Sequence record: OR466728.1
Direction: 5' to 3' (one strand)
Length of the DNA stretch: 48,315 nt
DNA from: Escherichia phage ES
Shown here piece by piece: positions 283 to 46,563 of the stretch (position 1 is its first letter; each line of letters opens with the position of its first letter). Below the pieces are notes generated by a model. That model saw only the letters and a program-made list of their open reading frames with translations, searched no databases and was not told the DNA's origin. The position numbers were made by a program, and so were the translations under genes.

Positions 283-807
283 ATGAAAGACGAAAACTTC
301 ACCAGTCAGGCGCAGGAAAAGGTCAGCTCTGGCAACTTTAAAGCCATGTACAATAAAAAGTACTCAGACATTACAACGCTAGCCAAAAACCGAAGCATGA
401 CACCCGAACAGCTATTTGAATTCGCCGTGAAATACTTCTCATGGGCTGAGGACCAGGCAATCAAGGCAATCGAGACAGCCAGCTTCCAGGGTGTGGTAAA
501 AGAGAGCCTGGTGCACAAACCACGAGTCTTCACGCTAACCGGATTCTGCCTTTACTGCGGCGTCACCCATAGCGCCATCGAGAAATGGAGGAAGTCGGCT
601 GGTTACGATGAGGTGATGGCATTCATTGATTCCGTGATTCGCGAGCAAAAGTACCAGTTAGCAGCGTCCGGCATCATTAACCCTGGCATGATTTCTAAAG
701 AGCTCGGTATCGACAAGCCGCAGGAGATTAACATCACCAGCACATCTTCAGCCAACGACGTCGATACGATGAAAGAGGCGCTCGAATCGGTTATTAGCAA
801 GTTGTAG
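283..807 (+). CDS. terminase small subunit (putative)
   Basis: 174-aa ORF, RBS AAAGGAGG 7 nt upstream, immediately upstream of large terminase; function inferred from position. Confidence 0.5.
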   Translation: MKDENFTSQAQEKVSSGNFKAMYNKKYSDITTLAKNRSMTPEQLFEFAVKYFSWAEDQAIKAIETASFQGVVKESLVHKPRVFTLTGFCLYCGVTHSAIEKWRKSAGYDEVMAFIDSVIREQKYQLAASGIINPGMISKELGIDKPQEINITSTSSANDVDTMKEALESVISKL

Positions 808-822
808 CACTTTTTGTTAAAA
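805..822 (+). promoter_or_regulatory. dyad box copy 1 (TAGCACTTTTTGTTAAAA)
   Basis: TAG is the stop codon of 283-807; GATAAT about 22 nt downstream; ATG of 875 is 70 nt downstream. Confidence 0.5.
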
Positions 823-874
823 ATAGCGAACCAATCAGTGGGATAATGGGTCACTAAATAAACAAGGAGAATAT

Positions 875-1351
875 ATGGATTGGGGTGATTTCTTCTATCT
901 TAGTGATGATTCCGTTTCTGGTATAAAGTGGAAGGTTAATAAGGGTCGGTCAATGGCTGGTGACGACGCTTTAACATCTGTTGGTAATGGATATTACAAA
1001 GGCAGACTCAACCAGAAGACAACGTACGCCCACAGGGTCGTTTACTTTCTTAACTATGGCGTAATCCCTGATGTTATAGATCATATGGATGGTAATGGGC
1101 TTAACAACTCAATAGAAAACCTAAGGGATGGCACCACAGCCAAGAATATGCAAAACAAGCTATGTAAGGGTTACAGCTACAATAAGAGGGATGACGTTTA
1201 TTATGCTCAGGTAACTACAAATGGGGTGACTAAACATGTAGGTTCTTTTGCAAGCAAGGAATTGGCTATTGCTGCTTACCTAAAGGAGAAGGAATTGCAG
1301 CATGATTTCTATAACAAAGAGAGGAAGATATGCTTGTTTGGGAAAGTATGA
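875..1351 (+). CDS. HNH homing endonuclease with AP2-like DNA-binding domain
   Basis: HNH signature YAHRVVY...IDHMDGNGLNN...NLR, then AP2-like C-terminal segment; RBS AAGGAG. Confidence 0.7.
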   Translation: MDWGDFFYLSDDSVSGIKWKVNKGRSMAGDDALTSVGNGYYKGRLNQKTTYAHRVVYFLNYGVIPDVIDHMDGNGLNNSIENLRDGTTAKNMQNKLCKGYSYNKRDDVYYAQVTTNGVTKHVGSFASKELAIAAYLKEKELQHDFYNKERKICLFGKV

Positions 1352-2892
1352 GCCAGCAGGAAAAGCTGGCTGTAAAACTTATATCAGAGAATAGTTTTGA
1401 GGGATTTTTAAGGTGCTGGTTTTCCATTACTCAGGGTGAGAGATACATCCCTAACTGGCACCACAAGTATCTTTGCAGAATCATCGATGAGATTATCGCA
1501 GGTGAGCGTAAGGACACAATCATCAACATAGCACCCGGGAGTGGGAAGACAGAGATAGCATCAATTCACTTCCCAGCCTACTCCATGGTTAAGTTGAAGA
1601 AGGTAAGGAACCTTAACATCTCGTTTGCCGACTCACTTGTTAAGCGTAACTCTAAGCGAGTGCGTGACCTGATTAAGTCGGTTGAGTTCCAGGAGTTGTG
1701 GCCCTGCAAGTTTGGCACATGTAAGGATGATGAGCTACAGATTCTGGATGAGTCTGGTAAGGTTCGGTTTGAGTCAATATCTAAGGCTGCTGGAGGCCAA
1801 ATAACCGGCGCAAGGGGTGGATATATAACGGATTCATATAGCGGAGCGGTTCTGTTAGATGATTTTGACAAACCAGCCGACATGCTTTCTGCTGTTTTTC
1901 GCGCTAACAATCACGTGATGCTAAAGAATACAATACGCTCTCGTAGGGCGAGCTCCGTAAAAGGAAAGGCGACGCCGATTATCTCTATCCAACAGCGCCT
2001 TCATGTGAATGATAGTACGTGGTTCATGATGAATGGCGGTATGGGTATTAGCTTCGACTTGATTAAGATACCGGCGCTCGTAACTGAGGATTACGTCGAA
2101 ACGCTTCCTGACTGGATTAAGCAGCAATTCATTGATGACGTTCTATCAAGCGAATATATTGAGCGTGATGGTGTTAGGTACTATAGCTATTTCCCTGGCA
2201 AGGAATCTGTTCACGACCTAGTTGCAATGTGGGATTCTGATAGCTATACATTCCTTAGCCAGTATCAGCAAGAACCAGTAGCACTTGGCGGCAACCTGAT
2301 TAACGTAGACTGGCTTCAACGCATTAGCGACACTCTGCGACCGCCAGCTAAGTACGATTACAGGTTTATGGTCCTTGATACTGCGATGACAACCAAAAGT
2401 TACAGCGACTTTAGTGTCATGCAGCTATGGGGTTATAAGGATGGGAAGATTTATCTGCTTGACCAGCGGCGCGGTAAATTTGAAGCTCCTGAGCTCGAGG
2501 CTGAGTTATTGAATTTCGAGAAGATGGCTAGGGCATCCAATCAGATAGATGGCATCCTTCGTAAAATCATCATCGAGAAGAAAGCCTCTGGTATTGGCCT
2601 GATTCAATCAGCCGGAAGGGTTATGCGAACGCCTATCGAGCCGTACGTTCCTGATAACGATAAGCTGACTCGCGTAATGAGTGCATTGCCGCAGATTAAA
2701 GCTGGTAACGTAATCCTTCCGGAGTCTGCTACTTGGCTTAATGGCTTGCTAACGGAGATTGCGGCATTCACGGCAGATGATTCACATGTTCACGATGACC
2801 AGATAGACTGTTTGACAATGGCTGTCAACCTGGTACTGAACATTGCAGAAGACCCTAAATCGAGGATGATGCGCCTCGCTGGCATCAAATAG
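1330..2892 (+). CDS. terL: terminase large subunit
   Basis: 520 aa; P-loop IAPGSGKT near N-terminus, acidic C-terminal nuclease-like half; start may be ATG 1348. Confidence 0.75.
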   Translation: MLVWESMSQQEKLAVKLISENSFEGFLRCWFSITQGERYIPNWHHKYLCRIIDEIIAGERKDTIINIAPGSGKTEIASIHFPAYSMVKLKKVRNLNISFADSLVKRNSKRVRDLIKSVEFQELWPCKFGTCKDDELQILDESGKVRFESISKAAGGQITGARGGYITDSYSGAVLLDDFDKPADMLSAVFRANNHVMLKNTIRSRRASSVKGKATPIISIQQRLHVNDSTWFMMNGGMGISFDLIKIPALVTEDYVETLPDWIKQQFIDDVLSSEYIERDGVRYYSYFPGKESVHDLVAMWDSDSYTFLSQYQQEPVALGGNLINVDWLQRISDTLRPPAKYDYRFMVLDTAMTTKSYSDFSVMQLWGYKDGKIYLLDQRRGKFEAPELEAELLNFEKMARASNQIDGILRKIIIEKKASGIGLIQSAGRVMRTPIEPYVPDNDKLTRVMSALPQIKAGNVILPESATWLNGLLTEIAAFTADDSHVHDDQIDCLTMAVNLVLNIAEDPKSRMMRLAGIK

Positions 2893-2907
2893 CACGTTTT
2901 GCTAAAG
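2890..2907 (+). promoter_or_regulatory. dyad box copy 2 (TAGCACGTTTTGCTAAAG)
   Basis: TAG is the terL stop; TATAGT about 22-23 nt downstream; ATG of 2962 is 72 nt downstream. Confidence 0.5.
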
Positions 2908-2961
2908 ACGCGCCGCCAAGGATGGCTTATAGTTACTTCACGCAAACGAGAGGAGTAAAAA

Positions 2962-3315
2962 ATGAAAGCAGTATTTAAAGGGTATAAAAAAGCTGGTTAT
3001 TTTGATTTTACCGTTGGTAAGATTTATGACTTATCAAGAACGCCTGGAAGTAATAATGAATACGTCAAAGTTAAGGATGATAAAGGCTATTTGGGCGTAA
3101 TTAATCTTAGTGTTTATGATTTCGAAGTTATAGAGCCTACCGATTTTGTCGTTAAAGGTGATAATTTTAAAGTTGAAAAGGCTGGGATTAAATACTTCAT
3201 CAACAAAGACATAGTAACTAAAGAGGCATTTTATGAAGTCAGAAGGGAGGTTCGCCAGTTAACACTTAATGGAGTGAAAACATCATCAATCAAGTTCGAA
3301 GTAAAATTCGAGTAA
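2962..3315 (+). CDS. hypothetical Lys-rich protein (AT-rich insertion)
   Basis: 117-aa ORF, RBS GAGAGGAG, AT-rich codon usage unlike flanking genes, own promoter box and terminator. Confidence 0.5.
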   Translation: MKAVFKGYKKAGYFDFTVGKIYDLSRTPGSNNEYVKVKDDKGYLGVINLSVYDFEVIEPTDFVVKGDNFKVEKAGIKYFINKDIVTKEAFYEVRREVRQLTLNGVKTSSIKFEVKFE

Positions 3316-7876: not shown

Positions 7877-7904
7877 TTGCTACACCTGAAAACTCGTGTA
7901 TAAT
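7877..7904 (+). promoter_or_regulatory. sigma70-type promoter (TTGCTA -16 nt- TATAAT) for the capsid gene
   Basis: near-consensus -35 and perfect -10 with 16-nt spacer, 38 nt upstream of ATG 7942. Confidence 0.5.
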
Positions 7905-11559: not shown

Positions 11560-11564
11560 ATTGA

Positions 11565-11582
11565 TAGCACTTTTTGTTAAAG
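11565..11582 (+). promoter_or_regulatory. dyad box copy 3 (TAGCACTTTTTGTTAAAG)
   Basis: TATAGT 22 nt downstream, then CATCGAAAAG; ATG of 11641 is 76 nt downstream. Confidence 0.5.
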
Positions 11583-11640
11583 GCTAAGTCGCGGATTGCT
11601 GTATAGTTCATTCATCGAAAAGAAATGAGAGATTAATGAA

Positions 11641-22772: not shown

Positions 22773-22833
22773 TTTCGTATTCCTTGTGAGGTTCGTTTCG
22801 ATGGAGTAATCATACATCATCTATAATCTTTGT

Positions 22834-22851
22834 CTTTAGCAATTCGTGCTA
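22834..22851 (-). promoter_or_regulatory. dyad box copy 4 (minus strand TAGCACGAATTGCTAAAG)
   Basis: on minus strand followed by TATGAT at about 22 nt and CATCGAAAC; 62 nt upstream of lipoprotein ATG. Confidence 0.5.
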
Positions 22852-22910
22852 TTGGTTACGCGTAACCGATGTAACTCGATGTATACCATATGCATCCGCG
22901 GGAAATCGTA

Positions 22911-24487: not shown

Positions 24488-24968
24488 TTGATAAATTTAA
24501 TGATATCTTTAGATATGATGGTGAAAAGCTGTACTATAAAAACTGGGTAAACGGTAGAAGTAAGTCTCTTGGACTAGAGGCTGGTAGCAAACAGAATGGT
24601 TACTTGAAAGTTACAATTGGCGGCAGAAATTATAAAGTTCATAGAATTATATGGGAAATGGTTAATGGTGAAATACCTGATGGAATGGAATAGATCACAT
24701 AAATCACGTAAAGGATGATAATAGGATTGAGAATCTAAGGCTGGTAACTCACAAGGAAAACTCAAGAAATAGGAAAAAGAGGTCAGATAACTCTTCAGCA
24801 ACACAGGGCGTTTCTCTGCATAAGATTACAAGGAAGTGGCAATCTTATTGCTCTGATAATGATGGAAAAATTATGTACCTTGGATTATTTGAGGATATTA
24901 ATGATGCTATTGATGCTAGGGTTAAGTTCGCCTCACAATGTGACTTCCATGAGAATCATGGTAAATAG
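24484..24968 (+). pseudogene. HNH endonuclease, frameshifted (1-nt deficit near 24689-24691)
   Basis: N-part VHRIIWEMVNGEIPDGME in frame 1 and C-part IDHINHVKDDNRIENLRLVTHKENSRN in frame 0; paralogue of intact 41210-41707. Confidence 0.6.
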
Positions 24969-24983
24969 CAATAATTGCTAAAG
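24966..24983 (+). promoter_or_regulatory. dyad box copy 5 (TAGCAATAATTGCTAAAG)
   Basis: TAG is the stop of the HNH C-terminal frame; TATCAT about 22 nt downstream; ATG of 25039 is 73 nt downstream. Confidence 0.45.
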
Positions 24984-25038
24984 ACAAATCTTATAGGTGG
25001 GGTATCATTACCCCATAGAAACTAAAGAGAGATAGGTA

Positions 25039-28732: not shown

Positions 28733-28756
28733 TGTGTAAAGTCTCCATTTGTAAAA

Positions 28757-28774
28757 TAGCACGAATTGCTAAAG
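28757..28774 (+). promoter_or_regulatory. dyad box copy 6, orphan (plus orientation between two minus-strand genes)
   Basis: exact TAGCACGAATTGCTAAAG; no plus-strand gene or good -10 downstream; overlaps 5' leader of the tail fibre gene. Confidence 0.4.
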
Positions 28775-29743: not shown

Positions 29744-29764
29744 ATCAATCTACCTCTTAACAAA

Positions 29765-29795: not shown

Positions 29796-29801
29796 AATCC
29801 T

Positions 29802-30275
29802 TTACTCTTTAGCTTTTCGTGCTGCTTCGTTAGCGGCCTTAATCTTGCGCCATGATCGACACTCTGGCTTGGTGGCTAGCTCTGCTTCAGTAACTACGCG
29901 AAGCATATGACGCTTCTTACATCGAAGTGTTAGCGGCTTACCGTTTCCGTCGAATTGCAGGTCTGGTCGGCAGAACGTAGCTCGAAATCCTTCCTTATTT
30001 CTCTTATACGCATTGTGAGCTTTCTGCGCTCCTCGAGCCGAAATCATCCCGCGATCAAACCATTGCTCTACAGTCTGGTGAGATACGTTTAACTGCTTTG
30101 CGATGTTCGCCTTTGTTCCATAGAAATCAAGAACCATCTCCAGGCGAGCACGTAGCCCAGCCTTTACCTCATCTTTCAATACGTAGTAGCCTGACGGTCG
30201 TTTGCGTTGCTTCTTGTCTTGTGTGCGTACCGTTCCGTTATTGCCGTTAATAGTTCGTTTGTCAATTTCACACAT
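29802..30275 (-). CDS. HTH DNA-binding protein (candidate transcription regulator)
   Basis: 157 aa, basic, HTH-like GTKANIAKQLNVSHQTVEQWFDRG; RBS GAGG; a dyad box overlaps its 5' region. Confidence 0.5.
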   Translation of the reverse strand: MCEIDKRTINGNNGTVRTQDKKQRKRPSGYYVLKDEVKAGLRARLEMVLDFYGTKANIAKQLNVSHQTVEQWFDRGMISARGAQKAHNAYKRNKEGFRATFCRPDLQFDGNGKPLTLRCKKRHMLRVVTEAELATKPECRSWRKIKAANEAARKAKE

Positions 30276-30288
30276 CTCATTACCTCAA

Positions 30289-30306
30289 TAGCACTTTTTG
30301 TTAAAC
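30289..30306 (+). promoter_or_regulatory. dyad box copy 7 (TAGCACTTTTTGTTAAAC) in divergent region
   Basis: TATTAT about 21-22 nt downstream; helicase ATG 83 nt downstream; 14 nt from the ATG of the divergent HTH gene. Confidence 0.5.
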
Positions 30307-30371
30307 AATAGGTTCGATAATTGATATTATACAGCAATGCAACGAACTAACAAACTGTCAGGATACTTAAA

Positions 30372-33300
30372 ATGCTTCCAGTAGAGCGCTTAGTGGCAAA
30401 CTTTGATCAAGAGAAAATCAAACAGATTCAGAAAGATTACCAGTTTGGAGACATAACTCCTTACGAATTCCAGTGTGTAACATTTGACGCAATTGGTAAG
30501 GCTATTGGTAAGTACGAGGCTCCATTCATCGCAGACCTGTCTGTATCTGCTGGTAAAACAATAATTCTTGCCATGATTGGGAAAAGAATGGAGCAACTTG
30601 GACTTCCTTATATGGTACTGTCTCGCCAGTCAGAGATTATCAGCCAGAACGCAGAGGAACTCCGTAACTTCGGTATCCGTAATAGCGTCTATTGCGCTGG
30701 ACTTAACGTTAAATCAGTTTACTACCCAACCATAGTGGCTAGTGAGGGTACAGCTGCCAATGGCCTGTTTAAGGGGCTTGGTGACTATGTTCCTGCTGTT
30801 ATCGCGATAGATGAGTGCTTAACTGGAGACACGATGATAACCACCGATTCAGGGATGATGAGGATTGATAGCGAAGACCTTATCAATCATAAAATAAAAT
30901 GCATAAACGAAAGCACTGGTGATTACTTCTATCATAAGCCAAAAAGAGTTTTTACTAATGGTGTAAGACATGTATCATCAATTAAATTAGAAAGCGGAGA
31001 GGAAATAAAATGCACGAGTACACACAAACTTTATTCGAACGGCTGCTGGGTAGGAGCGGGAAAACTTCGTATTGGGATGAATCTGTCGCTAGACGGCTCG
31101 CAGGACAAATTTACGAAAAAGCTCCTGCGTGCAAGTGTGGCTGTGGTGAAAAAGTTATGCCGCATTCAAGCAAGGGGTTAGGCGTACTTCTTAAGAACCC
31201 TTTCGATTTCTATTTGGATTACAGAACGGGGCATCATAATTCAACCGTCAACCCATCAATGGAGGTTGATGACTTTTTACATCAAAACATTCTTGCGGCA
31301 ATGGCTGGTGATGGTTGCTTGATTAAAAATACAGAAAAAGGAACGCATAGGCTATCTTGGAATATGGGAAATAAGGAGCACGCACTAAGCAAGGTTGAAA
31401 GGTTTGCAAAACTAAACCCTAGATACAGGGAGAAGAAAAACCCTGGATTTGGCGACAACTGGTTTTGCGTATCAACATCATGTACGAAAGTTCTGGATTC
31501 ATATGCTGATAAGTACGGAAATTCTAAGGATGGTTACGATATTGGAAAGATATGCAGAGAGCTTGATCCAGTTGGTTGGGCTGCTTACTTTGGTGATGAT
31601 GGTCATTGCACTGTAAGCTCAGGGAAGAGGGTTGTAGAAATCCACACCGAATCATTTAGCAGGCGTGAAGTTCAATCAGTAGTTGATGCGCTAATAGCAT
31701 TTATTGCTAATGACGGAGTTAATGTTAGAAGCTATATTGGCGGCAAGAAAAAGAGAGAGCTTTACTCAGTATCAATAACAACGAGGTCGGCACAAGATGA
31801 GTTTTTTAAGAGAATTAGTAAGCACATGGAAAATGGCGTGGAATACAAAATCAAGCAAAATTAAAGACATCTCACCCATTGGCAAGGAACTTGTTTGGGA
31901 TATAGAGATGCCTGAGCACCATAATTTCATTGCTGACGGGGTCGTGGCACATAATTGCCACATGGTGGACCATATGGATATCGTAGAAGCTGAAGAGAAT
32001 GAGGAAACATTCGAGCAGATGAGCACGAAGAAGGGTGAGATGGTCTTTAAGGATGGTGTGAATACCGGGCTTCTTGGCACTGGTCGCGCGCAATACACGT
32101 TAATCATTACCGAAATGAAGCGTCGATGCAAGGAGAAGTACGGTCGCGAACTTCGTATCTTTGGGTTAACTGGTAGCCCGTACCGTAACAACGACCACAT
32201 TGTAGTTAGTAACCCAAATGTCCGTGGATTCTGGCGCAAAACTGTAATGCAAGTGCCAACCAGCTACCTTGTTGACTTGGGGTTCGTTGTTCCTACTGTC
32301 TACGGTGAAGTTGGTGATTTGGGCTACGACCTTAGTGAGTTCACTCCTGATGGAAGTGATGGGGTTAAGGACTTCAGCAAGAAAGAAATGGATGCGATGG
32401 CTGCAAAGATTCACGAAAACCAAACGATGACACAAAAGATAATGGGATTTGCTGCTAGGTTTATGGAAACAAGGAATGCTGCATTGGTAACTTGCGCTGG
32501 CAAACAGCATTGCGAGGAGGCGGCAGCCGCACTTCCAGAAGGTGTTACTTGGGCGATAGTTACCAACTCCACTGGTGATAAGAAGCGTAGAGAGATACTT
32601 GAGAAGGCAGCCAGCGGAGAATATAAGTTCATATTTCAGATTGGTTGCCTCACAACTGGCGTAAACTGCCCCCCGTGGGATACAAGCATTATCCTGAGGA
32701 AGGTTGGTAGCATTACTCTACTCATTCAGTTGCTTGGTCGTGGTATGCGTATCCTTAAGAAGAAGCACAAAGAAGCTGGAATGGTAAAAGATGACCATGT
32801 TGTTCTTGATTTTGCCGGGACGCTTGACGATATGGCAGAACTCTACTTCGACCCAATTATAGAAGAGGTTCAGGACCAGAAGTTTAAGTCATCCAGGAAA
32901 GGGGGTGATGAACCAAGAATTTGCCCAGCATGTTCTTATGAGAATTCTCCTTTCGCACGGCGCTGTAATAATGTGATTGACGGTAAACGATGCGAGCATT
33001 TTTTTCAGTTCCGTCTTTGCGAAGATATTGAGGACCCGCAGACGAAAGTTATCGTTAAGAAAGGTTGCGGAGAGAAAAATGACGTTGCAGCAAAGAACTG
33101 CCGCTGCTGCGGAGAGATGCTGATAGACCCAAATGCAAAGCTATCTGGAAAAATGTATCGGAAAGGGGACTGGTTGAGAGTTTATGACTTCAAGATTGGG
33201 TTGACAAAAAACCAGTCAGGGATCGTTGCTTCATATGAGGTAATGGCTCATAGTGGAGATAAGTTCCGAGCTTATGAAACATTCTTCCCGGAGTCAGACC

Positions 33301-33506: not shown

Positions 33507-33507
33507 T

Positions 33508-33927
33508 ATGAAAATCACAGACAAAGGTGATTACCTCGAGTTCTATGGCGGACCGGTGAAGTCATGCCCAAAGGAAGACGATGAACAAATCTTCTGCTCT
33601 GATTGGGTGAAATACAACTATCCGCAGATTGTTTACTGGCACACGATTAACGAAAATAAAAAGAGCATTGGTCAAGCAATAAAAGACCAAGCCAAGGGGC
33701 TTCTCAAAGGTGTGTCAGACTGCTTATTTCTGATACCTGAGTCATTGCGTGGCGGTTATCCATTTGGCGCCATAGAGTTAAAGAGGGCTGGTAAAACGCA
33801 AGCAAGCCCAGTTAGCAATGAGCAAAAGTCATTCCTAAAAAGCGTAAGGGAATCAGGCGGTTTCGCAGCGGTGGCTTATGGAAGAGAGGGTTTTCTTGCG
33901 GCATTCGCAGAGATGATAAGAAAATAG
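33508..33927 (+). CDS. VRR-NUC-like nuclease (putative)
   Basis: 139 aa; ...D...IELKRAGK... PD-(D/E)XK-like core; RBS GGAGG. Confidence 0.45.
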   Translation: MKITDKGDYLEFYGGPVKSCPKEDDEQIFCSDWVKYNYPQIVYWHTINENKKSIGQAIKDQAKGLLKGVSDCLFLIPESLRGGYPFGAIELKRAGKTQASPVSNEQKSFLKSVRESGGFAAVAYGREGFLAAFAEMIRK

Positions 33928-33942
33928 CACGAATTGCTAAAG
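33925..33942 (+). promoter_or_regulatory. dyad box copy 8 (TAGCACGAATTGCTAAAG)
   Basis: TAG is the stop of 33508-33927; TATTAT 22 nt downstream, then CATCGAAAC; ATG of 34006 is 81 nt downstream. Confidence 0.55.
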
Positions 33943-34005
33943 ACGAATTGGTGAGTTGGTGTATTATCAACTCATCGAAACGAAACAAAGAGAGAGATAA
34001 ATAAA

Positions 34006-34194
34006 ATGAAAGACATTATTACTAAAGAATCCCAAAGCTACTACGCCTCATACTATGAGACAGTTAATGGTTTTAAATTTATTGATATAGAGCAAGGTGG
34101 AAACGCCGTTACGCTAACTAGCGAAAAAGATTTAAATGACATGATTTCGTTCTTAGAAAAAGTGAAAGAGCATTTAAATAGCACGAATTGCTAA
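34006..34194 (+). CDS. hypothetical protein (C-terminus NSTNC)
   Basis: 62 aa, RBS AAAGAGAGAGA; last five codons are encoded by the next dyad box. Confidence 0.5.
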   Translation: MKDIITKESQSYYASYYETVNGFKFIDIEQGGNAVTLTSEKDLNDMISFLEKVKEHLNSTNC

Positions 34195-34196
34195 AG
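34179..34196 (+). promoter_or_regulatory. dyad box copy 9 (TAGCACGAATTGCTAAAG)
   Basis: lies inside the 3' end of 34006-34194; TATAGT 22 nt downstream, CATCGAAAC; ATG of 34256 is 77 nt downstream. Confidence 0.55.
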
Positions 34197-34255
34197 AGAT
34201 TTCGCAGGGACGCGATATAGTTACTCCATCGAAACAAAACGCAGAGAGAAAGAAA

Positions 34256-34444: not shown

Positions 34445-34449
34445 GAGTA

Positions 34450-34671
34450 ATGGCAATTTTAACATTTGACAAACAATGGGAACTATTTCAGGCAATGGGG
34501 GTTCAGGAGCTACACAATGCTGGTTATAAAGGTAACTCATGGTTTTTAGCAGGATGCCTTGATTACAGCTTTGAAGAAGATTACTTGCGAACGGACATCG
34601 AAACATGGCGCGAACGCATGGTTGCAGACATTGCGGAAATGAAAAAAGATTGCCCGGAGGATTTTGAATAA
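34450..34671 (+). CDS. hypothetical protein
   Basis: 73-aa ORF, RBS GAGG. Confidence 0.5.
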   Translation: MAILTFDKQWELFQAMGVQELHNAGYKGNSWFLAGCLDYSFEEDYLRTDIETWRERMVADIAEMKKDCPEDFE

Positions 34672-34796
34672 TGAAAATCTTAGATAAGGAGATGTTCGAA
34701 ATTGCACAGACTTATGCAAATGAAGCAGTTAAAACCGGATCAGAATATTGTTGGATGTGTGCTAAAGAATATCTGAAAATGGCTTATGACTTATGA
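34671..34796 (+). CDS. hypothetical small protein
   Basis: 41-aa ORF below the track cut-off, tightly packed in the operon. Confidence 0.35.
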   Translation: MKILDKEMFEIAQTYANEAVKTGSEYCWMCAKEYLKMAYDL

Positions 34797-35041
34797 TAGT
34801 TGAAACCGGACGCGCCGCAGTTTGGGCGCATTGCGGAGAGGCGGGATTGCAGGATGACATCAAGAAAATATCTAAATACTTCGATATTCAAGAAATCAGC
34901 GTTGTCTACGGCGGTAAGTTTTCATATATACAAGATCGTCCAAGGAAATATGTAAGAGTTAAACCAGGTGCCAGGATTGATGTTAACGAGTTCCTTAAAT
35001 CTGAGGGATTCAAGTTTAAGATAACGAAGCATAAGGATTAA
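34793..35041 (+). CDS. hypothetical protein
   Basis: 82-aa ORF, ATGA overlap with upstream stop. Confidence 0.45.
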   Translation: MIVETGRAAVWAHCGEAGLQDDIKKISKYFDIQEISVVYGGKFSYIQDRPRKYVRVKPGARIDVNEFLKSEGFKFKITKHKD

Positions 35042-35043
35042 TC

Positions 35044-35190
35044 ATGAAGCCACACGAATATTCAGCATTGGTTAACGGGTTACTTGAGGTTTCTATAAAA
35101 TTCAAGGATACGCAGCAGTTAAGGGAGCAGCTATCACGAGAACTCTCAAGGCATGGTATTAGACCGAGTCATAAGATGGAAAAGGATTGA
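35044..35190 (+). CDS. hypothetical small protein
   Basis: 48-aa ORF below the track cut-off, fills the gap between flanking genes. Confidence 0.3.
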   Translation: MKPHEYSALVNGLLEVSIKFKDTQQLREQLSRELSRHGIRPSHKMEKD

Positions 35191-35192
35191 GC

Positions 35193-35444
35193 ATGTTGGG
35201 TTTAGATTTTCAGCCGGAGCATTACGATTTAGTATATGGTCAAAGTGGTGCGAAGTTTAGAGCGATACCTATTTCTGACTGGTTTCCTCCTGACTACGTG
35301 GATGTTAATGCGAAGACGAAGGATGGTAAATGGGTACAGATTTACTATTCCCCAGCGTGCGGGAATCTCTGCATGACAGACCTGGACCAGAAATTAGAAA
35401 TTAGTGCAGATTTAATTGATTACTGGTTGAAAGAGGTTGTATGA
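35193..35444 (+). CDS. hypothetical protein
   Basis: 83 aa from ATG 35193, RBS AAGGA. Confidence 0.45.
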   Translation: MLGLDFQPEHYDLVYGQSGAKFRAIPISDWFPPDYVDVNAKTKDGKWVQIYYSPACGNLCMTDLDQKLEISADLIDYWLKEVV

Positions 35445-35515
35445 AGTACACAGCCCTAGTAGCATTAGTACCACTGTTTAGCTTTACTATCTTATATTTT
35501 ATTGTGATGAACTAA
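35441..35515 (+). CDS. hydrophobic micro-peptide (24 aa, putative membrane)
   Basis: MKYTALVALVPLFSFTILYFIVMN; RBS AAGAGG 5 nt upstream; ATGA overlap with upstream stop. Confidence 0.3.
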   Translation: MKYTALVALVPLFSFTILYFIVMN

Positions 35516-35525
35516 GGACTTAAAA

Positions 35526-36659
35526 ATGGCAGCATCAAAGATTACAAATGAACAGCTTATCGAAGAGCTGAAAAGCGGCCTGACTAACAAGGCAATTGCA
35601 GAGAAGTACGGCATGAATATTCGCAACGTTGAGCTTCGTCGCAGTAAGTTGGCTAAGAGTGGTATTGGGCATGGTAATGAAGGTATCAAGAAGCTAGTTC
35701 CTGACGGTTATTTAGTCAAGGGCACCTCAACAATGATTGATGCGGAAGGGAATGAGAAGCTGCGTTGGGTTAAGACTTCGATTGATGCTGAGAAGCAAGA
35801 AGAGATGCTTCAGCAGATTGTTAAGGCTCTTACAGACGAGGTTCCTCGCGAGACTCCAAAGCCACTCAGTGAATCAAGCTATGAAGATACATTGAGTCTC
35901 TACCCTGTATTTGATATGCACATTGGCGCAATGGCTCACCATGCAGAGTGTGGGGAGAACTACAGTACAGAAATTGCAGAGCGAGTGCTTAACCAATACT
36001 TTGATTATGCAGTTGCTAAGGCCCCGAATTCATCAAAAGCCGTATTACTGATTGGTGGAGACTTCCTTCACTCGGATGGAATGGAAGCTGTAACTCCAAC
36101 CAGCAAGCACGTACTTGATCAAGATAGCCGTTATCATAAACTTGTCTACGTAGCTGTTCGTGCAACTCGCCGCGCCGTCAGTAAGATGCTTGACAAGCAT
36201 AAAGAGGTTGAGGTTCAGATTATACCAGGCAACCACGACCTTTCTGGGATGATTTGGCTTCGAGCTGCAATGGCTGCCTTCTACATGGATGAGCCTCGTG
36301 TAAATGTTGATGCCTCACCAGCCGCTCTTCACGTGACGGAGTTTGGTAAAACATTGTTGGGTTACTGCCATGGTCATGAATTGCGAAAGCCTGACACTCG
36401 TCTTTCAACTCTTGCGCGCGACCATCGCAAAGCATTTGGTAATGCTGAATACGTTTATACACATAGTGGCCATTATCATCATCAGACGGTTACTGAGGGT
36501 AATCTTGGAATTGATGAGTCACACGGTCAGTTGGGTGCTAAAGATGCGTACAGCGCAAACGGAGGGTATCGCTCTTATCGTCAGGCCTCAGTAATTATCT
36601 ATAGCTCAGAGTACGGTGAAGTTGGTCGATTCACTTGCCGACCTGAAATGTTTAAGTAA
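35526..36659 (+). CDS. calcineurin-like metallophosphoesterase with N-terminal HTH domain
   Basis: phosphoesterase motifs DMHIG, GGDFLHSD, PGNHD; N-terminal HTH-like LTNKAIAEKYGMNIRNV. Confidence 0.55.
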   Translation: MAASKITNEQLIEELKSGLTNKAIAEKYGMNIRNVELRRSKLAKSGIGHGNEGIKKLVPDGYLVKGTSTMIDAEGNEKLRWVKTSIDAEKQEEMLQQIVKALTDEVPRETPKPLSESSYEDTLSLYPVFDMHIGAMAHHAECGENYSTEIAERVLNQYFDYAVAKAPNSSKAVLLIGGDFLHSDGMEAVTPTSKHVLDQDSRYHKLVYVAVRATRRAVSKMLDKHKEVEVQIIPGNHDLSGMIWLRAAMAAFYMDEPRVNVDASPAALHVTEFGKTLLGYCHGHELRKPDTRLSTLARDHRKAFGNAEYVYTHSGHYHHQTVTEGNLGIDESHGQLGAKDAYSANGGYRSYRQASVIIYSSEYGEVGRFTCRPEMFK

Positions 36660-36677
36660 TAGCACTTTTTGTTAATA
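36660..36677 (+). promoter_or_regulatory. dyad box copy 10 (TAGCACTTTTTGTTAATA)
   Basis: immediately after the TAA stop of 35526-36659; ATG of 36733 is 73 nt downstream; -10 weak (CAAAAT). Confidence 0.4.
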
Positions 36678-36732
36678 AAGCCTCAAAGGATTGAGGCAAA
36701 ATGAATAAACGATAACGATATGAGGAGTTGTA

Positions 36733-37206
36733 ATGATTTACGTGTTTGATATTGATGGAACTGTTGCTAACAATGAACATAGAAGCCACCTCTTACCATC
36801 TAGTGACCTTCACTTGACTTCAAGTTGGAGTGATTACAATAGAGCCTGTTCTGGAGATTCACCGATAATCCCAATGATAAACATGATGAATGCGTTAGCT
36901 GAGTTATCGCCAGTTTACATCATGACTTCAAGAAGTGACGAAGTCGAATGTATGACGCTTGAATGGCTTCAGTATAATAATATTAATTATGATGGAATAT
37001 ATATGAGGAGTAGATTGGATAACAGAAATGACTATATCATTAAAGAGATGTGGCTAAATGATTTGTGTAATGGTGACAAAGCAAGTGTGATAATCTTTGA
37101 GGATAATCCTAATGTTATCAGTCACCTAAGGAATTGCGGATATACTGTAATGTCAGTTTGTGAATATAAAGAATTACCAAAAGACTGCGAATCTCACGGA
37201 GAATAA
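36733..37206 (+). CDS. HAD-superfamily phosphatase (polynucleotide 3'-phosphatase-like)
   Basis: motif I VFDIDGTV at N-terminus; 157 aa; RBS GAGGAG. Confidence 0.55.
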   Translation: MIYVFDIDGTVANNEHRSHLLPSSDLHLTSSWSDYNRACSGDSPIIPMINMMNALAELSPVYIMTSRSDEVECMTLEWLQYNNINYDGIYMRSRLDNRNDYIIKEMWLNDLCNGDKASVIIFEDNPNVISHLRNCGYTVMSVCEYKELPKDCESHGE

Positions 37207-37207
37207 A

Positions 37208-37762
37208 ATGAAAAAGTTAATCATCCTTAATGCACCCCCTGGTGCTGGAAAAGATACAGTTGCAGATATCATTGTTAATCTTGGAATTTGCAAGGATAAG
37301 GTTTCATTCAAGTCACCAATGTTTAATGTTGCAAAAGGAATACTATCAAGTGATGAGTTTGATGGATTTATTAATAATTACGATGACCGAGAGTACAAAG
37401 AATCACCACACGAATTTCTTGGTGGAATGACTGTTCGTGAATTTATGATTTGGATTAGCGAATCAGTTATGAAGCCAGTCTTTGGTGATGATGTTTTCGG
37501 CAAAAGGCTCACACAATCACTTGGTGATGGATGCTACATTTGTTCAGACGGTGGATTTGCGAGTGAAATCGAACCACTGATTGGCAACGGCGTTGAGGTT
37601 ACATTGATTAGGCTTCACAGGCCTGGTTATACTTTCGAAGGAGATAGTAGGTCATACCTTAGTTGCGTCTGCGCAAGAGAGATTGATGTTGATGTTATTG
37701 AAGGTGATATTAAAAGAACTACAGAAAAAGTAATTAGTGCAATCAATAGCACGAATTGCTAA
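37208..37762 (+). CDS. P-loop kinase (nucleotide or polynucleotide kinase-like)
   Basis: Walker A LNAPPGAGKDT at residues 6-16; 184 aa from ATG 37208 (RBS GGAG); ends NSTNC inside a dyad box. Confidence 0.55.
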   Translation: MKKLIILNAPPGAGKDTVADIIVNLGICKDKVSFKSPMFNVAKGILSSDEFDGFINNYDDREYKESPHEFLGGMTVREFMIWISESVMKPVFGDDVFGKRLTQSLGDGCYICSDGGFASEIEPLIGNGVEVTLIRLHRPGYTFEGDSRSYLSCVCAREIDVDVIEGDIKRTTEKVISAINSTNC

Positions 37763-37764
37763 AC
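37747..37764 (+). promoter_or_regulatory. dyad box copy 11 (TAGCACGAATTGCTAAAC)
   Basis: overlaps the last codons of 37208-37762; AATAAT about 23 nt downstream, CATCGAAAAC; ATG of 37821 is 74 nt downstream. Confidence 0.5.
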
Positions 37765-37820
37765 AATCACCTTAGAGATGCGGAATAATCAACACATCGA
37801 AAACAAGAGAGGATTCAAAA

Positions 37821-37994
37821 ATGACTAAATTATACTGCGTTAAAAACAACTCCAAGACACTGCCTTTTACCGAGAGCCAACCTTATAGCGGAGAGTCGCT
37901 TGGAGATGGTTACTACAAGATTTACGGAGACGATATGACTCACATCCTTGCGCCGATTGATGGCTCTTTGGTGGAATTTATTATCGCAGATTAA
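37821..37994 (+). CDS. hypothetical small protein
   Basis: 57-aa ORF, RBS AAGAGAGG, followed by strong terminator. Confidence 0.4.
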   Translation: MTKLYCVKNNSKTLPFTESQPYSGESLGDGYYKIYGDDMTHILAPIDGSLVEFIIAD

Positions 37995-38021
37995 CACATC
38001 AAAAACATAGATTTGCATGCG

Positions 38022-41139: not shown

Positions 41140-41194
41140 TACTTCTCTCCGTATTGTTTCTGAGCGGATATTATATCAACAGCCGCTTATAATA

Positions 41195-41212
41195 CATTAT
41201 CAATTTGTGCTA
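41195..41212 (-). promoter_or_regulatory. dyad box copy 12 (minus strand TAGCACAAATTGATAATG)
   Basis: TAG is the stop of HNH gene 41210-41707; perfect TATAAT 22 nt downstream on minus strand; 56 nt upstream of ATG 41139. Confidence 0.5.
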
Positions 41213-41707
41213 TTTGCCATGATTTGGGTGATAACCCAGCCTCACCTCTGCAACAATTCTTGCCTCACATGCAGAGATAAAGTCATCAAAAAAACCAAGG
41301 TGAACAGTCTTTCCACCACTCTGTATTGAGGCCCTCCACTTACCTGTTCTTTTGTATATGGCGACTCCAGTTACACCACTTTTATTATCAAACCTTAATG
41401 ATGAGTTCATTGAATTCACTTTTTGGGTAACAAGCCTTAGATTTTCAATCCTATTGTCACGCCTATTTCCATTTATGTGGTCTATGAATAGACAATCAGG
41501 TATGTCTCCATTAGTCATCTCCCATATAATTCTGTGAGCCATTGTGTAGCCGATTCCCTTATTGCTAACCCTAACGTACCCGCTTGTTGTAACCTCCGTG
41601 TTAACTGGCTTATTTGCATATTTTGTATTCCAAGATTGAGTTCTATCTGACCTCTCCTTTCTGTACAAAACTGAATCTTTTATATAAAAAATTTCATTCC
41701 AGTTCAT
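41210..41707 (-). CDS. HNH homing endonuclease
   Basis: AHRIIWEMTNGDIPDCLFIDHINGNRRDNRIENLRLVTQKVN; ATG 41707 overlaps upstream stop (ATGA). Confidence 0.7.
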   Translation of the reverse strand: MNWNEIFYIKDSVLYRKERSDRTQSWNTKYANKPVNTEVTTSGYVRVSNKGIGYTMAHRIIWEMTNGDIPDCLFIDHINGNRRDNRIENLRLVTQKVNSMNSSLRFDNKSGVTGVAIYKRTGKWRASIQSGGKTVHLGFFDDFISACEARIVAEVRLGYHPNHGK

Positions 41708-42127: not shown

Positions 42128-42154
42128 ACTATACAGGAAAAGCCCCGAAGGGCT
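42128..42154 (-). terminator. minus-strand terminator hairpin embedded in a promoter spacer
   Basis: on minus strand AGCCC/GGGCT stem then TTTTCC, immediately followed by TATAGT. Confidence 0.45.
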
Positions 42155-42170
42155 TTAGCAATTCGTGCTA
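42153..42170 (-). promoter_or_regulatory. dyad box copy 13 (minus strand TAGCACGAATTGCTAAAG)
   Basis: overlaps the NSTNC C-terminus of the 53-aa minus ORF; TATAGT 22 nt downstream; ATG 42090 about 63 nt downstream. Confidence 0.5.
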
Positions 42171-42316
42171 TTTCGTGCCTTCTCAATCGCCTTCAGCATA
42201 ATCTCGTGAGACTCAAGCAAGTCCTCGTTGAACCAGTCTCCGCAAGGCCACCCCTTCCCACTGTAAGCGGCAACAACGCTCAAGTCGTAATAGTTAATGT
42301 CAGATGGTAGAAGCAT
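42155..42316 (-). CDS. hypothetical small protein (C-terminus NSTNC)
   Basis: 53-aa ORF, TAATG coupling with the upstream gene. Confidence 0.35.
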   Translation of the reverse strand: MLLPSDINYYDLSVVAAYSGKGWPCGDWFNEDLLESHEIMLKAIEKARNSTNC

Positions 42317-42716: not shown

Positions 42717-42769
42717 ATCCCTCTCCTCGTTGTTGATGGATTCATTATGGCCTCGTCGCCAGTTTTTGT

Positions 42770-42787
42770 CATTAGCAAAAAGTGCTA
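42770..42787 (-). promoter_or_regulatory. dyad box copy 14 (minus strand TAGCACTTTTTGCTAATG)
   Basis: perfect TAGCA-N5-TGCTA dyad; CATAAT about 22-23 nt downstream on minus; 54 nt upstream of ATG 42716. Confidence 0.5.
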
Positions 42788-42807
42788 TTCGTTGGATTTA
42801 TCTATTG

Positions 42808-44011: not shown

Positions 44012-44029
44012 ATAGCACTTTTTGCCTAA
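44012..44029 (+). promoter_or_regulatory. dyad box copy 15 (TAGCACTTTTTGCCTAAC)
   Basis: CATAAT 22 nt downstream, CATCGAAAC; ATG of 44093 is 81 nt downstream; spacer contains ATGCCA/TGGCAT hairpin. Confidence 0.5.
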
Positions 44030-44092
44030 CGCAATAATGCCATGGATGGCATAATTATCTCATCGAAACGAGAGGCACAAAGGAAAACGAAA

Positions 44093-44522: not shown

Positions 44523-44523
44523 A

Positions 44524-44541
44524 TAGCACAAATTGTTAAAC
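44524..44541 (+). promoter_or_regulatory. dyad box copy 16 (TAGCACAAATTGTTAAAC)
   Basis: starts 2 nt after the TGA of 44337-44522; TATAGT 22 nt downstream; ATG of 44599 is 75 nt downstream. Confidence 0.5.
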
Positions 44542-44598
44542 CTTCCGCAAGGCCATTTGATATAGTGGCCTTATTAAAGCAAAGCAAGAGAGGGTGGG

Positions 44599-45059: not shown

Positions 45060-45202
45060 TTTACATTCACACTTACTATACAGGAAAGTTTAACAGCGTT
45101 AAGCACGTGCGTGTGCATGAAACATACGAATCGGCACATAGTCAGCTTAGAGTTCTTGGTGGAACAATTACAATGTGTGAAATTGTTGAAGAATACAGAT
45201 AG
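45056..45202 (+). CDS. hypothetical small protein
   Basis: 48-aa ORF, ATGA overlap; its TAG stop is the first triplet of a dyad box. Confidence 0.35.
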   Translation: MIYIHTYYTGKFNSVKHVRVHETYESAHSQLRVLGGTITMCEIVEEYR

Positions 45203-45217
45203 CACGAATTGCTAAAC
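45200..45217 (+). promoter_or_regulatory. dyad box copy 17 (TAGCACGAATTGCTAAAC)
   Basis: CATAAT 22 nt downstream, CATCGACAAC; spacer hairpin GCCGGAGTAATCCGGC; ATG of 45275 is 75 nt downstream. Confidence 0.55.
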
Positions 45218-45274
45218 AATCGCCGGAGTAATCCGGCATAATTACTACATCGACAACGAACGAGTAAATGAAGA

Positions 45275-45673: not shown

Positions 45674-46096
45674 ATGAAATTAAGCAAATCTCAAAGGGAA
45701 GAGTTGAAGGGCAAGTTCGGTGGTCGCTGCGCTTATTGTGGGTGTGAACTACCTGAGAAAGGCTGGCATGCTGACCATGTTGAACCGGTGCTACGTAAAT
45801 CTGAGGTATGCATGAAGGCAGCGGAGAAAGGAACTTTCAAGCTGAAGGCGACAGGTGAGTTTAATCGACCACAAGCTGATCGAATGGAAAACCTTTACCC
45901 TGCATGTGCTCCATGCAACCTCATGAAAACTTGCTATTCCCTTGAAATGTTCAGGGAACAGGTGTCTCTTCAAGTCGCTCGCGGGCGTAAGAGCAGCATG
46001 AATTTTCGCACGGCAGAGCGGTTCGGCCTCATCTCCATAGTGGAGGATCCAGTTGTTTTCTGGTTTGAGAAGTTTGAGCAAATTAACAAAATCTGA
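45674..46096 (+). CDS. HNH endonuclease (zinc-finger HNH type)
   Basis: CAYCGC...WHADHVEPV...NLYPACAPCN motif arrangement. Confidence 0.65.
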   Translation: MKLSKSQREELKGKFGGRCAYCGCELPEKGWHADHVEPVLRKSEVCMKAAEKGTFKLKATGEFNRPQADRMENLYPACAPCNLMKTCYSLEMFREQVSLQVARGRKSSMNFRTAERFGLISIVEDPVVFWFEKFEQINKI

Positions 46097-46106
46097 GGAT
46101 AGAGAA

Positions 46107-46241
46107 ATGCATACTGGGTTAATGATGGATGAAGTTCTGGTTGAAGCATTGCCATGGTTACTCTGGTCATTGGGCTTCATGATTATTTACATGATTTCAG
46201 CAGCCGTAGATGACGCTAAAAGCGATTCTAACGAACTATAA
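46107..46241 (+). CDS. small membrane protein (putative)
   Basis: 44 aa from ATG 46107 (RBS GAGGA), hydrophobic helix ALPWLLWSLGFMIIYMISAAV. Confidence 0.35.
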   Translation: MHTGLMMDEVLVEALPWLLWSLGFMIIYMISAAVDDAKSDSNEL

Positions 46242-46259
46242 TTTAAGTGAGGTGATTGC

Positions 46260-46420
46260 ATGATTAAGATCGTATACATTGGTCAGGATGATTATATGGC
46301 GCGCTTAAAGCATGGCGACGTATTCTATGCAGAGCCTAGCGAAGATGGCAATGGGTACTTCATTAAAAACAAGCACGATGAGGAGCTTTACATAGCAAAC
46401 CACGAGGCTCTTGTTTACTA
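46260..46420 (+). CDS. hypothetical small protein
   Basis: 53-aa ORF, RBS GTGAGGTG. Confidence 0.35.
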
Positions 46421-46561
46421 ATGGATAACTACGAAACACCAAGCCAGTGGGCTAAACGGATGATGGATGAGGCTAAGACTGGCGAGGTTGCCATGATGTA
46501 CTTCGAGCTGATGAATCTATGGAAGGAGCGTGAAGATAAAATAAACAGCACGAATAGCTAA
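46421..46561 (+). CDS. hypothetical small protein (C-terminus NSTNS)
   Basis: 46-aa ORF overlapping upstream stop; its 3' end is encoded by a dyad box. Confidence 0.35.
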   Translation: MDNYETPSQWAKRMMDEAKTGEVAMMYFELMNLWKEREDKINSTNS

Positions 46562-46563
46562 AC
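46546..46563 (+). promoter_or_regulatory. dyad box copy 18 (CAGCACGAATAGCTAAAC, degenerate)
   Basis: perfect TATAAT 22 nt downstream; spacer hairpin GGCA/TGCC; ATG of 46618 is 72 nt downstream. Confidence 0.45.

Follow-up and report, generated by a model that had tools for sequence, protein, structure and literature searches.

Marbox-like promoter modules repeated across the genome of Escherichia phage ES and other T1-like phages

Escherichia phage ES (sequence record OR466728.1) is considered here as one stretch of 48,315 nucleotides (nt), termed the window, of which 89% is coding. The window is a circular permutation of the record of Escherichia phage AN_ECEAS (PP944860.1; Drexlerviridae, Braunvirinae), to which its positions 28000-38000 are 100% identical, and its nearest relatives are of the TR1-3, ACG-M12, Rtp and Rogue1 types. 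An earlier note on this DNA described 18 copies of a short box with inverted half-sites TAGCA/TGCTA at a fixed position upstream of genes, and suggested a promoter class dependent on a dimeric factor. The box, the promoter modules built on it and their probable reader are the subject of this report. A search of the whole window with TAGCACNNNTTGCTAAAG, allowing at most 3 mismatches, returned 21 matches against 1.68 expected, a number reached in none of 100 shuffled controls. All 18 coordinates listed previously were recovered; the copy given at 44012 starts at 44013 when its 5' A is not counted. Beyond these, the search yielded one weak copy at 31695 and two doubtful 3-mismatch matches (1909 and 29807).

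With the exception of the weak copy at 31695, all boxes are intergenic or lie over the last codons or the stop codon of the upstream gene; they mark gene boundaries and are not equally common inside genes in random orientation. On recount 18 of 19 copies are co-oriented with the next gene, in keeping with the 17 of 18 reported before; only 28757 (+), an orphan flanked by the primase and tail-fibre genes, departs from this. Copies precede the HNH gene at 875 and the genes at 2962 and 11641, as had been noticed. On either strand the 5' end of the box lies 70-83 nt from the start codon, as counted in 18 of 19 copies. The 70-83 nt range given earlier therefore stands, while the shorter distance of 54-63 nt assigned to the minus-strand copies is a coordinate artefact, the real values being 71, 73, 79 and 80 nt.

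The box is phased to a sigma70 -10 element. The gap between TTGnTA and a TAnnnT hexamer measures 22 nt in 14 of the 19 copies and 21 or 23 nt in four, which bears out the TATAAT-like hexamer first placed about 22 nt past TTGCTA. At the expected spacing no -10 hexamer is found for the orphan 28757, and the copy at 36660 has a poor one only (CAAAAT). The -35 position of the modules is occupied by TAAAGA or TAAACA, and canonical -35/-10 pairs are not enriched in the window (45 against 43.8 expected in a simple sigma70 scan). The phased hexamer, together with this lack of enrichment, supports the proposal that box and -10 form one promoter class devoid of a usable -35, and the centre of the box near -41/-42 conforms to the class II activator geometry suggested for it. 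TTGCTA as a displaced -35 was ruled out, as 22 nt exceeds the reach of sigma70 and no -10 is present 17 nt downstream. A sigma54 -24/-12 element (TGGCAC-N5-TTGCW) was likewise rejected: the box TAGCAC-N3-TTGC has AG rather than GG and is 2 bp short, and the phased sigma70 -10 contradicts such a membership as well. Sigma28 promoters, the lambda CII site (TTGC-N6-TTGC), CRP/FNR sites, the T4 MotA box and boxA/nut were dismissed on sequence or position.

The earlier note advised that the box be sought in related T1-like genomes, and it is present in T1, Rtp, KP36, Rogue1, CS01 and Sazh, which together with the window make up the seven genomes discussed below. Each of these six carries 12-24 copies with identical 22-nt phasing, and the module is invariant among them and in over 250 boxes of viral contigs. 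Among 257 exact boxes in viral contigs, the hexamer lies at 22 nt in 201, at 23 nt in 20 and at 21 nt in 11. The hosts of box-bearing phages are all Enterobacteriaceae, which carry MarA/SoxS/Rob-type regulators. In 97 fixed-spacing modules of the seven genomes, for which A-11 and T-7 were the selection criteria, T-12 is found in 81 and G-14 in 77. The -10 is followed by a CATCGAAAC-like sequence, with C-1 in 60/97 and A+1 in 79/97 modules and then TCGAAAC; the conservation of C-1/A+1 hints that it may mark the transcription start. We also note a conserved initial transcribed sequence, (C)ATCGAAAC, at +1 to +8 in all modules (e.g. 33973-33981) ahead of the A-rich leader, which could serve promoter escape, stability of the RNA 5' end, or processing beside one type of spacer hairpin (type A, described below).

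Conservation extends into the upstream flank, with A-50 in 111/122 and A-51 in 93/122 copies, and with its 5' A the box reads A-T-A-G-C-A-C-n-W-W-T-T-G-Y-T-A-A-A. Judged by its letters, the box with the conserved 5' A included is a consensus marbox/soxbox/robbox. The marbox is defined as the non-palindromic 5'-gcannwwntgnnaaa-3' (PMC12052159), and the soxbox consensus is AYNGCACNNWNNRYYAAAYN, in which YAAA constitutes recognition element 2 (PMC2064960). Searched unchanged in the window, gcannwwntgnnaaa gives 13 exact matches against 0.99 expected, and AYNGCACNNWNNRYYAAAY (consensus AYnGCACnnWnnRYYAAAY) with at most 1 mismatch gives 15 against 1.2; nearly all matches of both patterns are the phage boxes. 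A weight matrix with the consensus GCACAAATTGCTAAA was derived from 70 Salmonella MarA/SoxS/Rob/RamA sites identified by chromatin immunoprecipitation sequencing (PMC10268841). The phage boxes reach about 16-17.3 bits on this matrix; for the host sites themselves, scored by leave-one-out, the median is 10.2 bits, with 16.2 as the 90th percentile and 17.6 as the maximum; matches of at least 13.4 bits number 17 in the window vs 1.85 in shuffles. The E. coli marRAB marbox ATGCCACGTTTTGCTAAAT is identical to box 2890 at 16/19 positions.

The placement of the box is that of a host class II promoter. In such Mar/Sox/Rob promoters the marbox points forward and overlaps the -35 (PMC12052159), a -35 is not recognisable, and the activator displaces sigma region 4. 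The modules combine the consensus match with two elements, forward orientation and a sigma70 -10 without -35. GCAC is promoter-distal and AAA promoter-proximal in 18/19 copies, which is the forward orientation, and the distance to the -10 is that of micF: the E. coli promoter consists of a 19-mer marbox, 19 bp and TAGAAT, and the phage promoter of a 19-mer, 19 bp and TATAGT. The micF soxbox is centred at -41.5, and the RamA site, a forward CACT-7X-AAA, at about -41. The cryo-electron microscopy structure of Rob, RNA polymerase (RNAP) and micF shows that Rob touches -47G and -45A of GCAC; given the inferred transcription start, GCAC of the phage lies at -47 to -44, in the register of this structure. 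The phage modules thus resemble micF and its class in the asymmetric 19-20-bp consensus, in the forward GCAC and YAAA elements 7 bp apart, and in a site over the missing -35 that is separated by 19 bp from the sigma70 -10. They differ from host marbox promoters in belonging to a virulent phage, whose genome carries about 18 of them per 48 kb. They also differ from the degenerate host marboxes, as nearly all phage boxes equal or exceed the best host sites in score, and they are fused to hairpins or terminators and to the conserved start and leader CATCGAAAC.

The pattern of conservation bears on the kind of protein that could read the box. Around -42 only the 5-bp arms TAGCA/TGCTA are symmetric, and position -37 is C in 73/122 and T in 39/122. 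Six strongly conserved positions (A-51, A-50, C-44, T-40, A-34 and A-33) are asymmetric, the pairs -44/-40, -50/-34 and -51/-33 being conserved and non-complementary. Information peaks at A-50, AGCAC (-48 to -44), G-38 and TAAA (-36 to -33), in two elements one helical turn apart. The marbox covers every conserved position of the box except A-48, and T-40 is typical of the best host sites. The dimeric factor bound to a dyad, as first proposed, is not borne out by these data, in which the whole pattern is that of a non-palindromic marbox; because conservation is asymmetric and the dyad is limited to 5-bp arms, a monomeric reader with a double helix-turn-helix (HTH) fits better than a dimer.

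No homolog of MarA, SoxS or the Rob N-terminal domain was found by tblastn in the seven phage genomes (best E = 0.28), and ten candidate proteins gave no AraC-type HTH with Pfam; a phage-encoded MarA-like protein was rejected on these grounds. Two phage products had been put forward as candidate readers, and both are weak. That of 35526-36659 gives no more than sub-threshold HTH matches at its N-terminus and is a metallophosphoesterase beyond it. That of 29802-30275, the T1 gp23/Rtp52-type regulator, is encoded by a core gene (824 phage records); its predicted structure (predicted local distance difference test score 88) contains a single Cro-like HTH with best PDB matches to Xfaso-1, N15 and P22 Cro, and AlphaFold and Foldseek ruled out a double-HTH protein. 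No segment of the regulator is less conserved than the recognition helix (majority frequency 0.52, 7.3 residue types per position), whereas the box is invariant and stays the same even in genomes that encode the most divergent homologs. In a test of co-variation between box and regulator, the most distant homologs still belonged to T1-like contigs with the same box, the family being narrow. The most conserved parts of the regulator lie outside the HTH, in a basic N-terminal motif, DKRTINGNNGTxRG…, for which disorder is predicted, and in the C-terminal motif FCRPDLxFDxNGKP…C; both motifs point to a putative conserved partner other than a DNA sequence.

The regulator gene is linked to the box by its position. 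At 30276-30372 two promoters lie face to face: the predicted regulator promoter (minus strand, 30353-30326) overlaps the -10 TATTAT of the helicase module (30325-30330), and the marbox of that module sits in the 5' untranslated region of the regulator gene beside its Shine-Dalgarno (SD) sequence. Both the helicase module and the face-to-face layout are kept in all seven genomes. The layout looks like a genetic switch, and the Cro-like regulator is possibly a second reader or a competitor of the box.

The 19-nt spacer and the 6-nt discriminator of the modules hold inverted repeats of unrelated sequence. In type A hairpins the stem is built around the -10, e.g. GGGGTA…TATAGT TACCCC, and these modules carry TGn ahead of the -10; type B hairpins are G+C-rich, adjoin the -10 and have T-rich sequence after them. 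The mean minimum free energy of 123 modules is -8.5 vs -3.7 kcal/mol in shuffles (p ~1e-16). The stems contain 55 G·U vs 10 A·C pairs, an excess which indicates that it is the single-stranded sense strand that is under selection. In a sub-family alignment pairing amounts to 82.5% vs 61.7%, the covariation score is 0.587 vs 0.261 (0/500 shuffles), and all six stem pairs have changed on both sides; fixed-column covariation over all 97 modules is diluted, as the positions of the hairpins vary. The hairpins lie upstream of the inferred start and therefore would belong to the read-through RNA of the upstream gene. Three features annotated as terminators in the T1 GenBank record are spacer hairpins.

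Similar units are known as the PeSL cassettes of RB49/phi1 and other T4-like phages, whose stem-loops function as terminators and are placed either over the -10 or in the interval between it and the -35. Both types are compact intergenic cassettes with an upstream stop codon, promoter, G-C-rich stem-loop containing G·T pairs, SD sequence and start codon, and both have a stem-loop in or over the promoter; in the T1-type modules the pairing is under selection, as seen from the folding energies, the G·U excess and the covariation. In contrast, PeSL promoters have a consensus sigma70 -35 and an AT-rich upstream region in place of the G/C-containing marbox. PeSL cassettes precede small ORFs (open reading frames) and are mobile between genomes, and the T1-type ones may share this behaviour: outside the T1 family, full cassettes are conserved ahead of a small ORF in the myoviruses RB43, RB16, Lw1 and Miller. 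The stems of the RB43-group cassettes form a compensatory series, GGGGTA/TACCCC, GGGGTA/TATCCC and GGGATA/TATCCC. This distribution suggests that cassettes may have been exchanged between phage families. They are located at 10278 and 10894 (minus) in Lw1, at 1806 and 2968 in RB43 and in Miller, ahead of a 70-aa ORF and denV, and in the second cassette of the RB43 group a terminator lies between marbox and -10 (31 nt instead of 19). Marbox promoters are not general in pseudo-T-even phages, as the first 50 kb of Lw1 hold two acquired cassettes only.

The repeat itself is already known; its identity as a marbox is new here. A 2024 re-annotation of TLS describes, in the part available, a 21-nt direct repeat, aaATAGCACnnnTTGnTAAAA, at 21 sites, oriented along transcription about 76 nt before start codons, with AAA, TTT and GAA sub-groups and with counterparts in T1, Rtp and Rogue1. 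Consensus, sub-groups, orientation and start-codon distance identify it with the present box. Its function was left undecided there between a stoperator, an enhancer-binding site and an UP element, and three sigma70 promoters only were called in TLS; unlike the present analysis, that part of the account ties the repeat to neither a phased -10 nor a marbox. Other T1-like genome papers report canonical promoters only. A literature search for a link between marbox or soxbox and phage promoters, which did not extend to the T1 genome paper of 2004, found none.

We consider it probable that each module is a phage cassette copying a host class II Mar/Sox/Rob promoter, with a terminator or stabiliser hairpin set in its spacer. 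The cassette would comprise a 19-20-bp marbox (A-50 … A-32/-31), an 18-19-bp free spacer, a sigma70 -10 often preceded by TG or G-14, a C(-1)A(+1) start within CATCGAAAC, a leader rich in A, a ribosome-binding site of GAGAG type and the ATG. The forward marbox would stand in for the -35, as in host promoters such as micF. A monomeric double-HTH activator of the MarA/SoxS/Rob family would read GCAC (-47 to -44) and TAAA (-36 to -33), occlude sigma region 4, contact this region as well as the alpha subunit's C-terminal domain (alpha-CTD), and bring host RNAP to a promoter with only a -10. In this way a host activator of stress and antibiotic responses may serve about 18 transcription units of the phage. 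As in CRP-dependent promoters, the activator site lies over the -35, the -10 is good, the -35 poor, and contact would be made with sigma region 4 and alpha. The reader in E. coli would most plausibly be the constitutively abundant Rob, with MarA or SoxS under stress, and RamA could be an additional reader in Klebsiella and Salmonella; Rob is constitutive and binds DNA tighter than MarA and SoxS, and RamA is present in the latter two genera (PMC10268841). A host factor is the most economical reader given the lack of a phage MarA homolog and the variable recognition helix of the Cro-like regulator, and as a host protein is present at infection, the earliest small genes could use the modules. The spacer hairpins would end or stabilise the transcripts of the upstream gene, such that each cassette insulates and restarts transcription.

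Several points weigh against this proposal. T1-like phages thrive in laboratory cultures. MarA and SoxS are scarce without stress, and Rob is largely sequestered in standard conditions (PMC10268841). A literature search for binding, activation, transcription start site or transcriptome data on T1-like phages found none. With G-14 or TG before the -10, substantial transcription could proceed without an activator. A-48, invariant in the phage although the marbox consensus has 'n' there, completes the TAGCA/TGCTA pseudo-dyad, which a phage dimer could read, and the conserved Cro-like protein has a box in its own leader. The proposal leaves the orphan and reversed boxes (28757; T1 capsid gene) unaccounted for. 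Finally, the marbox is a degenerate motif, and the majority of its matches in bacterial genomes have no function (PMC12052159); the score and geometry of the phage boxes far exceed this background.

Some of these points would be met if the box served twice, as a host marbox and as the operator of a phage protein, e.g. the Cro-like regulator, that competes with Rob or MarA or blocks RNAP and later shuts off early and middle units in the manner of a stoperator. Such a double role would explain the additional symmetric constraint at A-48/T-36, the orphan or reversed boxes lacking a -10 (28757; T1 15068 and 18832, both minus) and the box in the leader of the regulator, and the stoperator analogy was raised by the TLS authors. 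It is nevertheless unlikely, as the variable recognition helix counts here as well and a simple repressor has no need of strict 22-nt phasing to the -10.

A distinctly unlikely alternative is that no factor is involved: RNAP would act through an extended -10, the box would be an UP-like or upstream contact for alpha-CTD or sigma region 4, and the likeness to a marbox would be coincidental. G-14 in 77/97 modules and TGn in type A are in line with this, as are the A/T-rich core at -43 to -39, TAAA at -36 to -33 and the suggestion of UP elements in the TLS paper. An UP element, however, is A/T-rich from -40 to -60 without fixed G or C, whereas G-47, C-46, C-44 and G-38 are conserved here at 92-100%. 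TTGnTA, 22 nt from the -10, is also beyond reach and out of phase for sigma region 4, and a chance match of 11 constrained marbox positions together with A1, the orientation and the exact micF spacing is very improbable.

Dimeric class II activators (CRP, FNR, lambda cI at PRM) bind near -41.5/-42 and, like Mor/C of phage Mu, are akin to the proposed activator in having their sites over a poor -35. The regulator of 29802-30275 could in principle be another, acting on sigma70 RNAP from the TAGCA-N5-TGCTA dyad at -42. The 5-bp pseudo-dyad with its 10-bp centre-to-centre distance, the A-48 unexplained by the marbox, and the core status and Cro-like fold of the regulator are compatible with this, and the box in its 5' untranslated region, facing its canonical promoter, suggests autoregulation. 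Such a role is quite improbable, for the sites of dimeric activators are true dyads, while the phage box is asymmetric at six highly conserved positions, has C or T at -37 in its right half-site, and no cognate dimer with a conserved recognition helix was found; the box stays invariant even beside the most divergent homologs. In addition, the earliest small genes carry modules and would have to await a phage product, and the module is kept in RB43-type phages, which may lack this gene.

That the box acts in RNA, as a UAGCA/UGCUA hairpin serving processing or antitermination in read-through transcripts, is barely credible: C or T at -37 does retain a G-C or G·U pair with G-47 and the adjoining spacer hairpins are clearly selected on the sense strand, but all other box variants are one-sided and break the stem without compensation, and phasing to the -10 within ±1 nt is needless for an RNA signal.

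If the modules do copy host class II promoters, a more tentative extension follows, to which we give somewhat less than even weight: that near-optimal class II marboxes tie most early and middle units to the host Mar/Sox/Rob(/RamA) regulon in the T1-like family as a whole (Drexlerviridae, including T1, TLS, Rtp, Rogue1, the Klebsiella weberviruses and others). Host stress signals such as bile salts, fatty acids, salicylate, redox agents and antibiotics would then drive and tune phage expression, phage DNA would draw the regulators off host resistance genes as it replicates, and the terminator-bearing cassettes would act as mobile promoter units that even T4-like phages exchange with this family. 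T1-like phages have no RNA polymerase or sigma factor of their own, and few sigma70 promoters have been annotated in them; the roughly 20 conserved repeats per genome are an acknowledged puzzle from the T1 genome paper of 2004 to 2024. The marbox reading makes this puzzle testable with existing reagents (purified Rob, MarA and SoxS, and strains deleted for all three). If true, it would provide a clear case of a virulent phage with a host stress and antibiotic-resistance activator as main transcription factor, and would link infection efficiency to antibiotic or bile exposure, with a bearing on phage therapy and phage-antibiotic combinations for E. coli and Klebsiella. It would further improve promoter annotation in more than 800 sequenced T1-like genomes and offer a source of compact, insulated, inducible promoter-terminator parts. 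The modules of the window and the associated features are collected in Table 1.

Table 1. Marbox-type modules and associated features of the window (hairpin energies in kcal/mol)
Feature	Position	Strand	Remarks
Module ATAGCACTTTTTGTTAAAA + 19 nt + GATAAT	804..847	+	Ahead of HNH gene 875; 16.0 bits; 70 nt to ATG; box TAG doubles as stop codon of 283-807
Module ATAGCACGTTTTGCTAAAG, spacing 23, TATAGT	2889..2933	+	Ahead of gene 2962; 16.8 bits
Module with TATAGT, then CATCGAAAAG	11564..11607	+	Directly 3' of terminator; ahead of gene 11641
Module, GAA type, TATGAT	22809..22852	-	Lipoprotein-like gene starts 22772; 17.3 bits; 79 nt
Module ATAGCAATAATTGCTAAAG, TATCAT	24965..25008	+	Ahead of recombinase gene 25039; hairpin GGTGGGGTA/TACCCCAT around -10, -12.4
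Orphan consensus marbox	28756..28774	+	Primase/tail-fibre gap (both genes minus); no good -10, no downstream + gene
T1 gp23/Rtp52-type regulator, single Cro-like HTH	29802..30275	-	Conserved N- and C-terminal motifs
Module, spacing 21, TATTAT	30288..30330	+	Helicase operon; inside 5' untranslated region of divergent Cro-like regulator gene
Near-canonical sigma70 promoter TTGTTA-16-TATAAT	30326..30353	-	Predicted to drive Cro-like regulator gene
Weak, doubtful copy GCATTTATTGCTAAT	31694..31738	+	9.5 bits; within coding sequence; annotated helicase start 138 nt on
Module, GAA type, TATTAT, CATCGAAAC	33924..33967	+	17.3 bits; hairpin GAGTTG/CAACTC around -10, -11.1
Module, GAA type, TATAGT, CATCGAAAC	34178..34221	+	Ahead of gene 34256
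Degenerate module …TTGTTAATA, poor -10 CAAAAT	36659..36702	+	Ahead of polynucleotide kinase gene 36733; spacer hairpin GCCTCAA/TTGAGGC, -10.4
Module ATAGCACGAATTGCTAAAC, AATAAT	37746..37789	+	Gene 37821, before lysis cassette; 0 mismatches to 19-mer consensus
Module, AAA type, TATAAT	41170..41213	-	DUF3987 helicase-like gene starts 41139; hairpin AGCGG/CCGCT around -10, -8.6
Module, GAA type, TATAGT	42128..42171	-	Terminator-like spacer hairpin GCCCttcgGGGC-TTTT
Module, TTT type, spacing 23, CATAAT	42744..42788	-	Ahead of gene starting 42716
Module …TTGCCTAAC, CATAAT, CATCGAAAC	44012..44055	+	Spacer hairpin GCCAT/ATGGC; gene starts 44093
Module, AAA type, TATAGT	44523..44566	+	Hairpin AAGGCC/GGCCTT around -10, -12.9
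Module, GAA type, CATAAT	45199..45242	+	Spacer hairpin CCGGA/TCCGG adjoins -10, -11.9
Module ACAGCACGAATAGCTAAAC, TATAAT	46545..46588	+	Spacer hairpin GGCAT/ATGCC; 0 mismatches; 15.9 bits

The hairpin of the 44523 module belongs to the same sub-family as those at T1 3536 and KP36 7254. The orphan box is part of a region (28756-28830) that also includes an adjacent bidirectional terminator and a partial inverted copy of the box (…GCGAATTGCTAG, minus strand), and this arrangement is kept in T1 (34903) and Rtp (33763); it may represent a candidate antisense promoter, a repressor site or a remnant. The helicase region at 30372-33506 appears interrupted in comparison with T1 and Rtp, where one helicase gene of ~2 kb follows the box. 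It contains the ORFs 30372-31181 (with faint Intein_splicing/HINT matches), 31010-31864 and 31797-33506, and the interruption may be due to an intein or an insertion.

Marbox-like sequences are also observed at other places. One, ATGGCACAAATGGTCAAAA (14.9 bits), is situated where the large tail-fibre (J-like) gene has its start codon (18109-18127), and kindred sequences occur before or at the start of the same gene in T1 (25022), Rogue1 (21765) and Sazh (25412). Another, GCACGAAAAGCTAAA (14.5 bits), is located within the final codons of the regulator gene (29772-29824, minus); next comes a strong terminator hairpin whose loop contains CATAAT, an arrangement also seen in T1, KP36, Sazh and CS01. 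This site resembles a putative module ahead of the primase gene, with a full terminator as its hairpin. Finally, a reversed box is found ~55 nt upstream of the major capsid gene in T1 (15068-15085, minus), KP36 (15364, minus) and Sazh (15528, minus), and at 13242 (+) in CS01, followed by a hairpin with CATAAT in the loop and a T-run. This arrangement is absent from the window, in which the capsid gene is instead preceded by a canonical promoter, TTGCTA-16-TATAAT, at 7877-7904.

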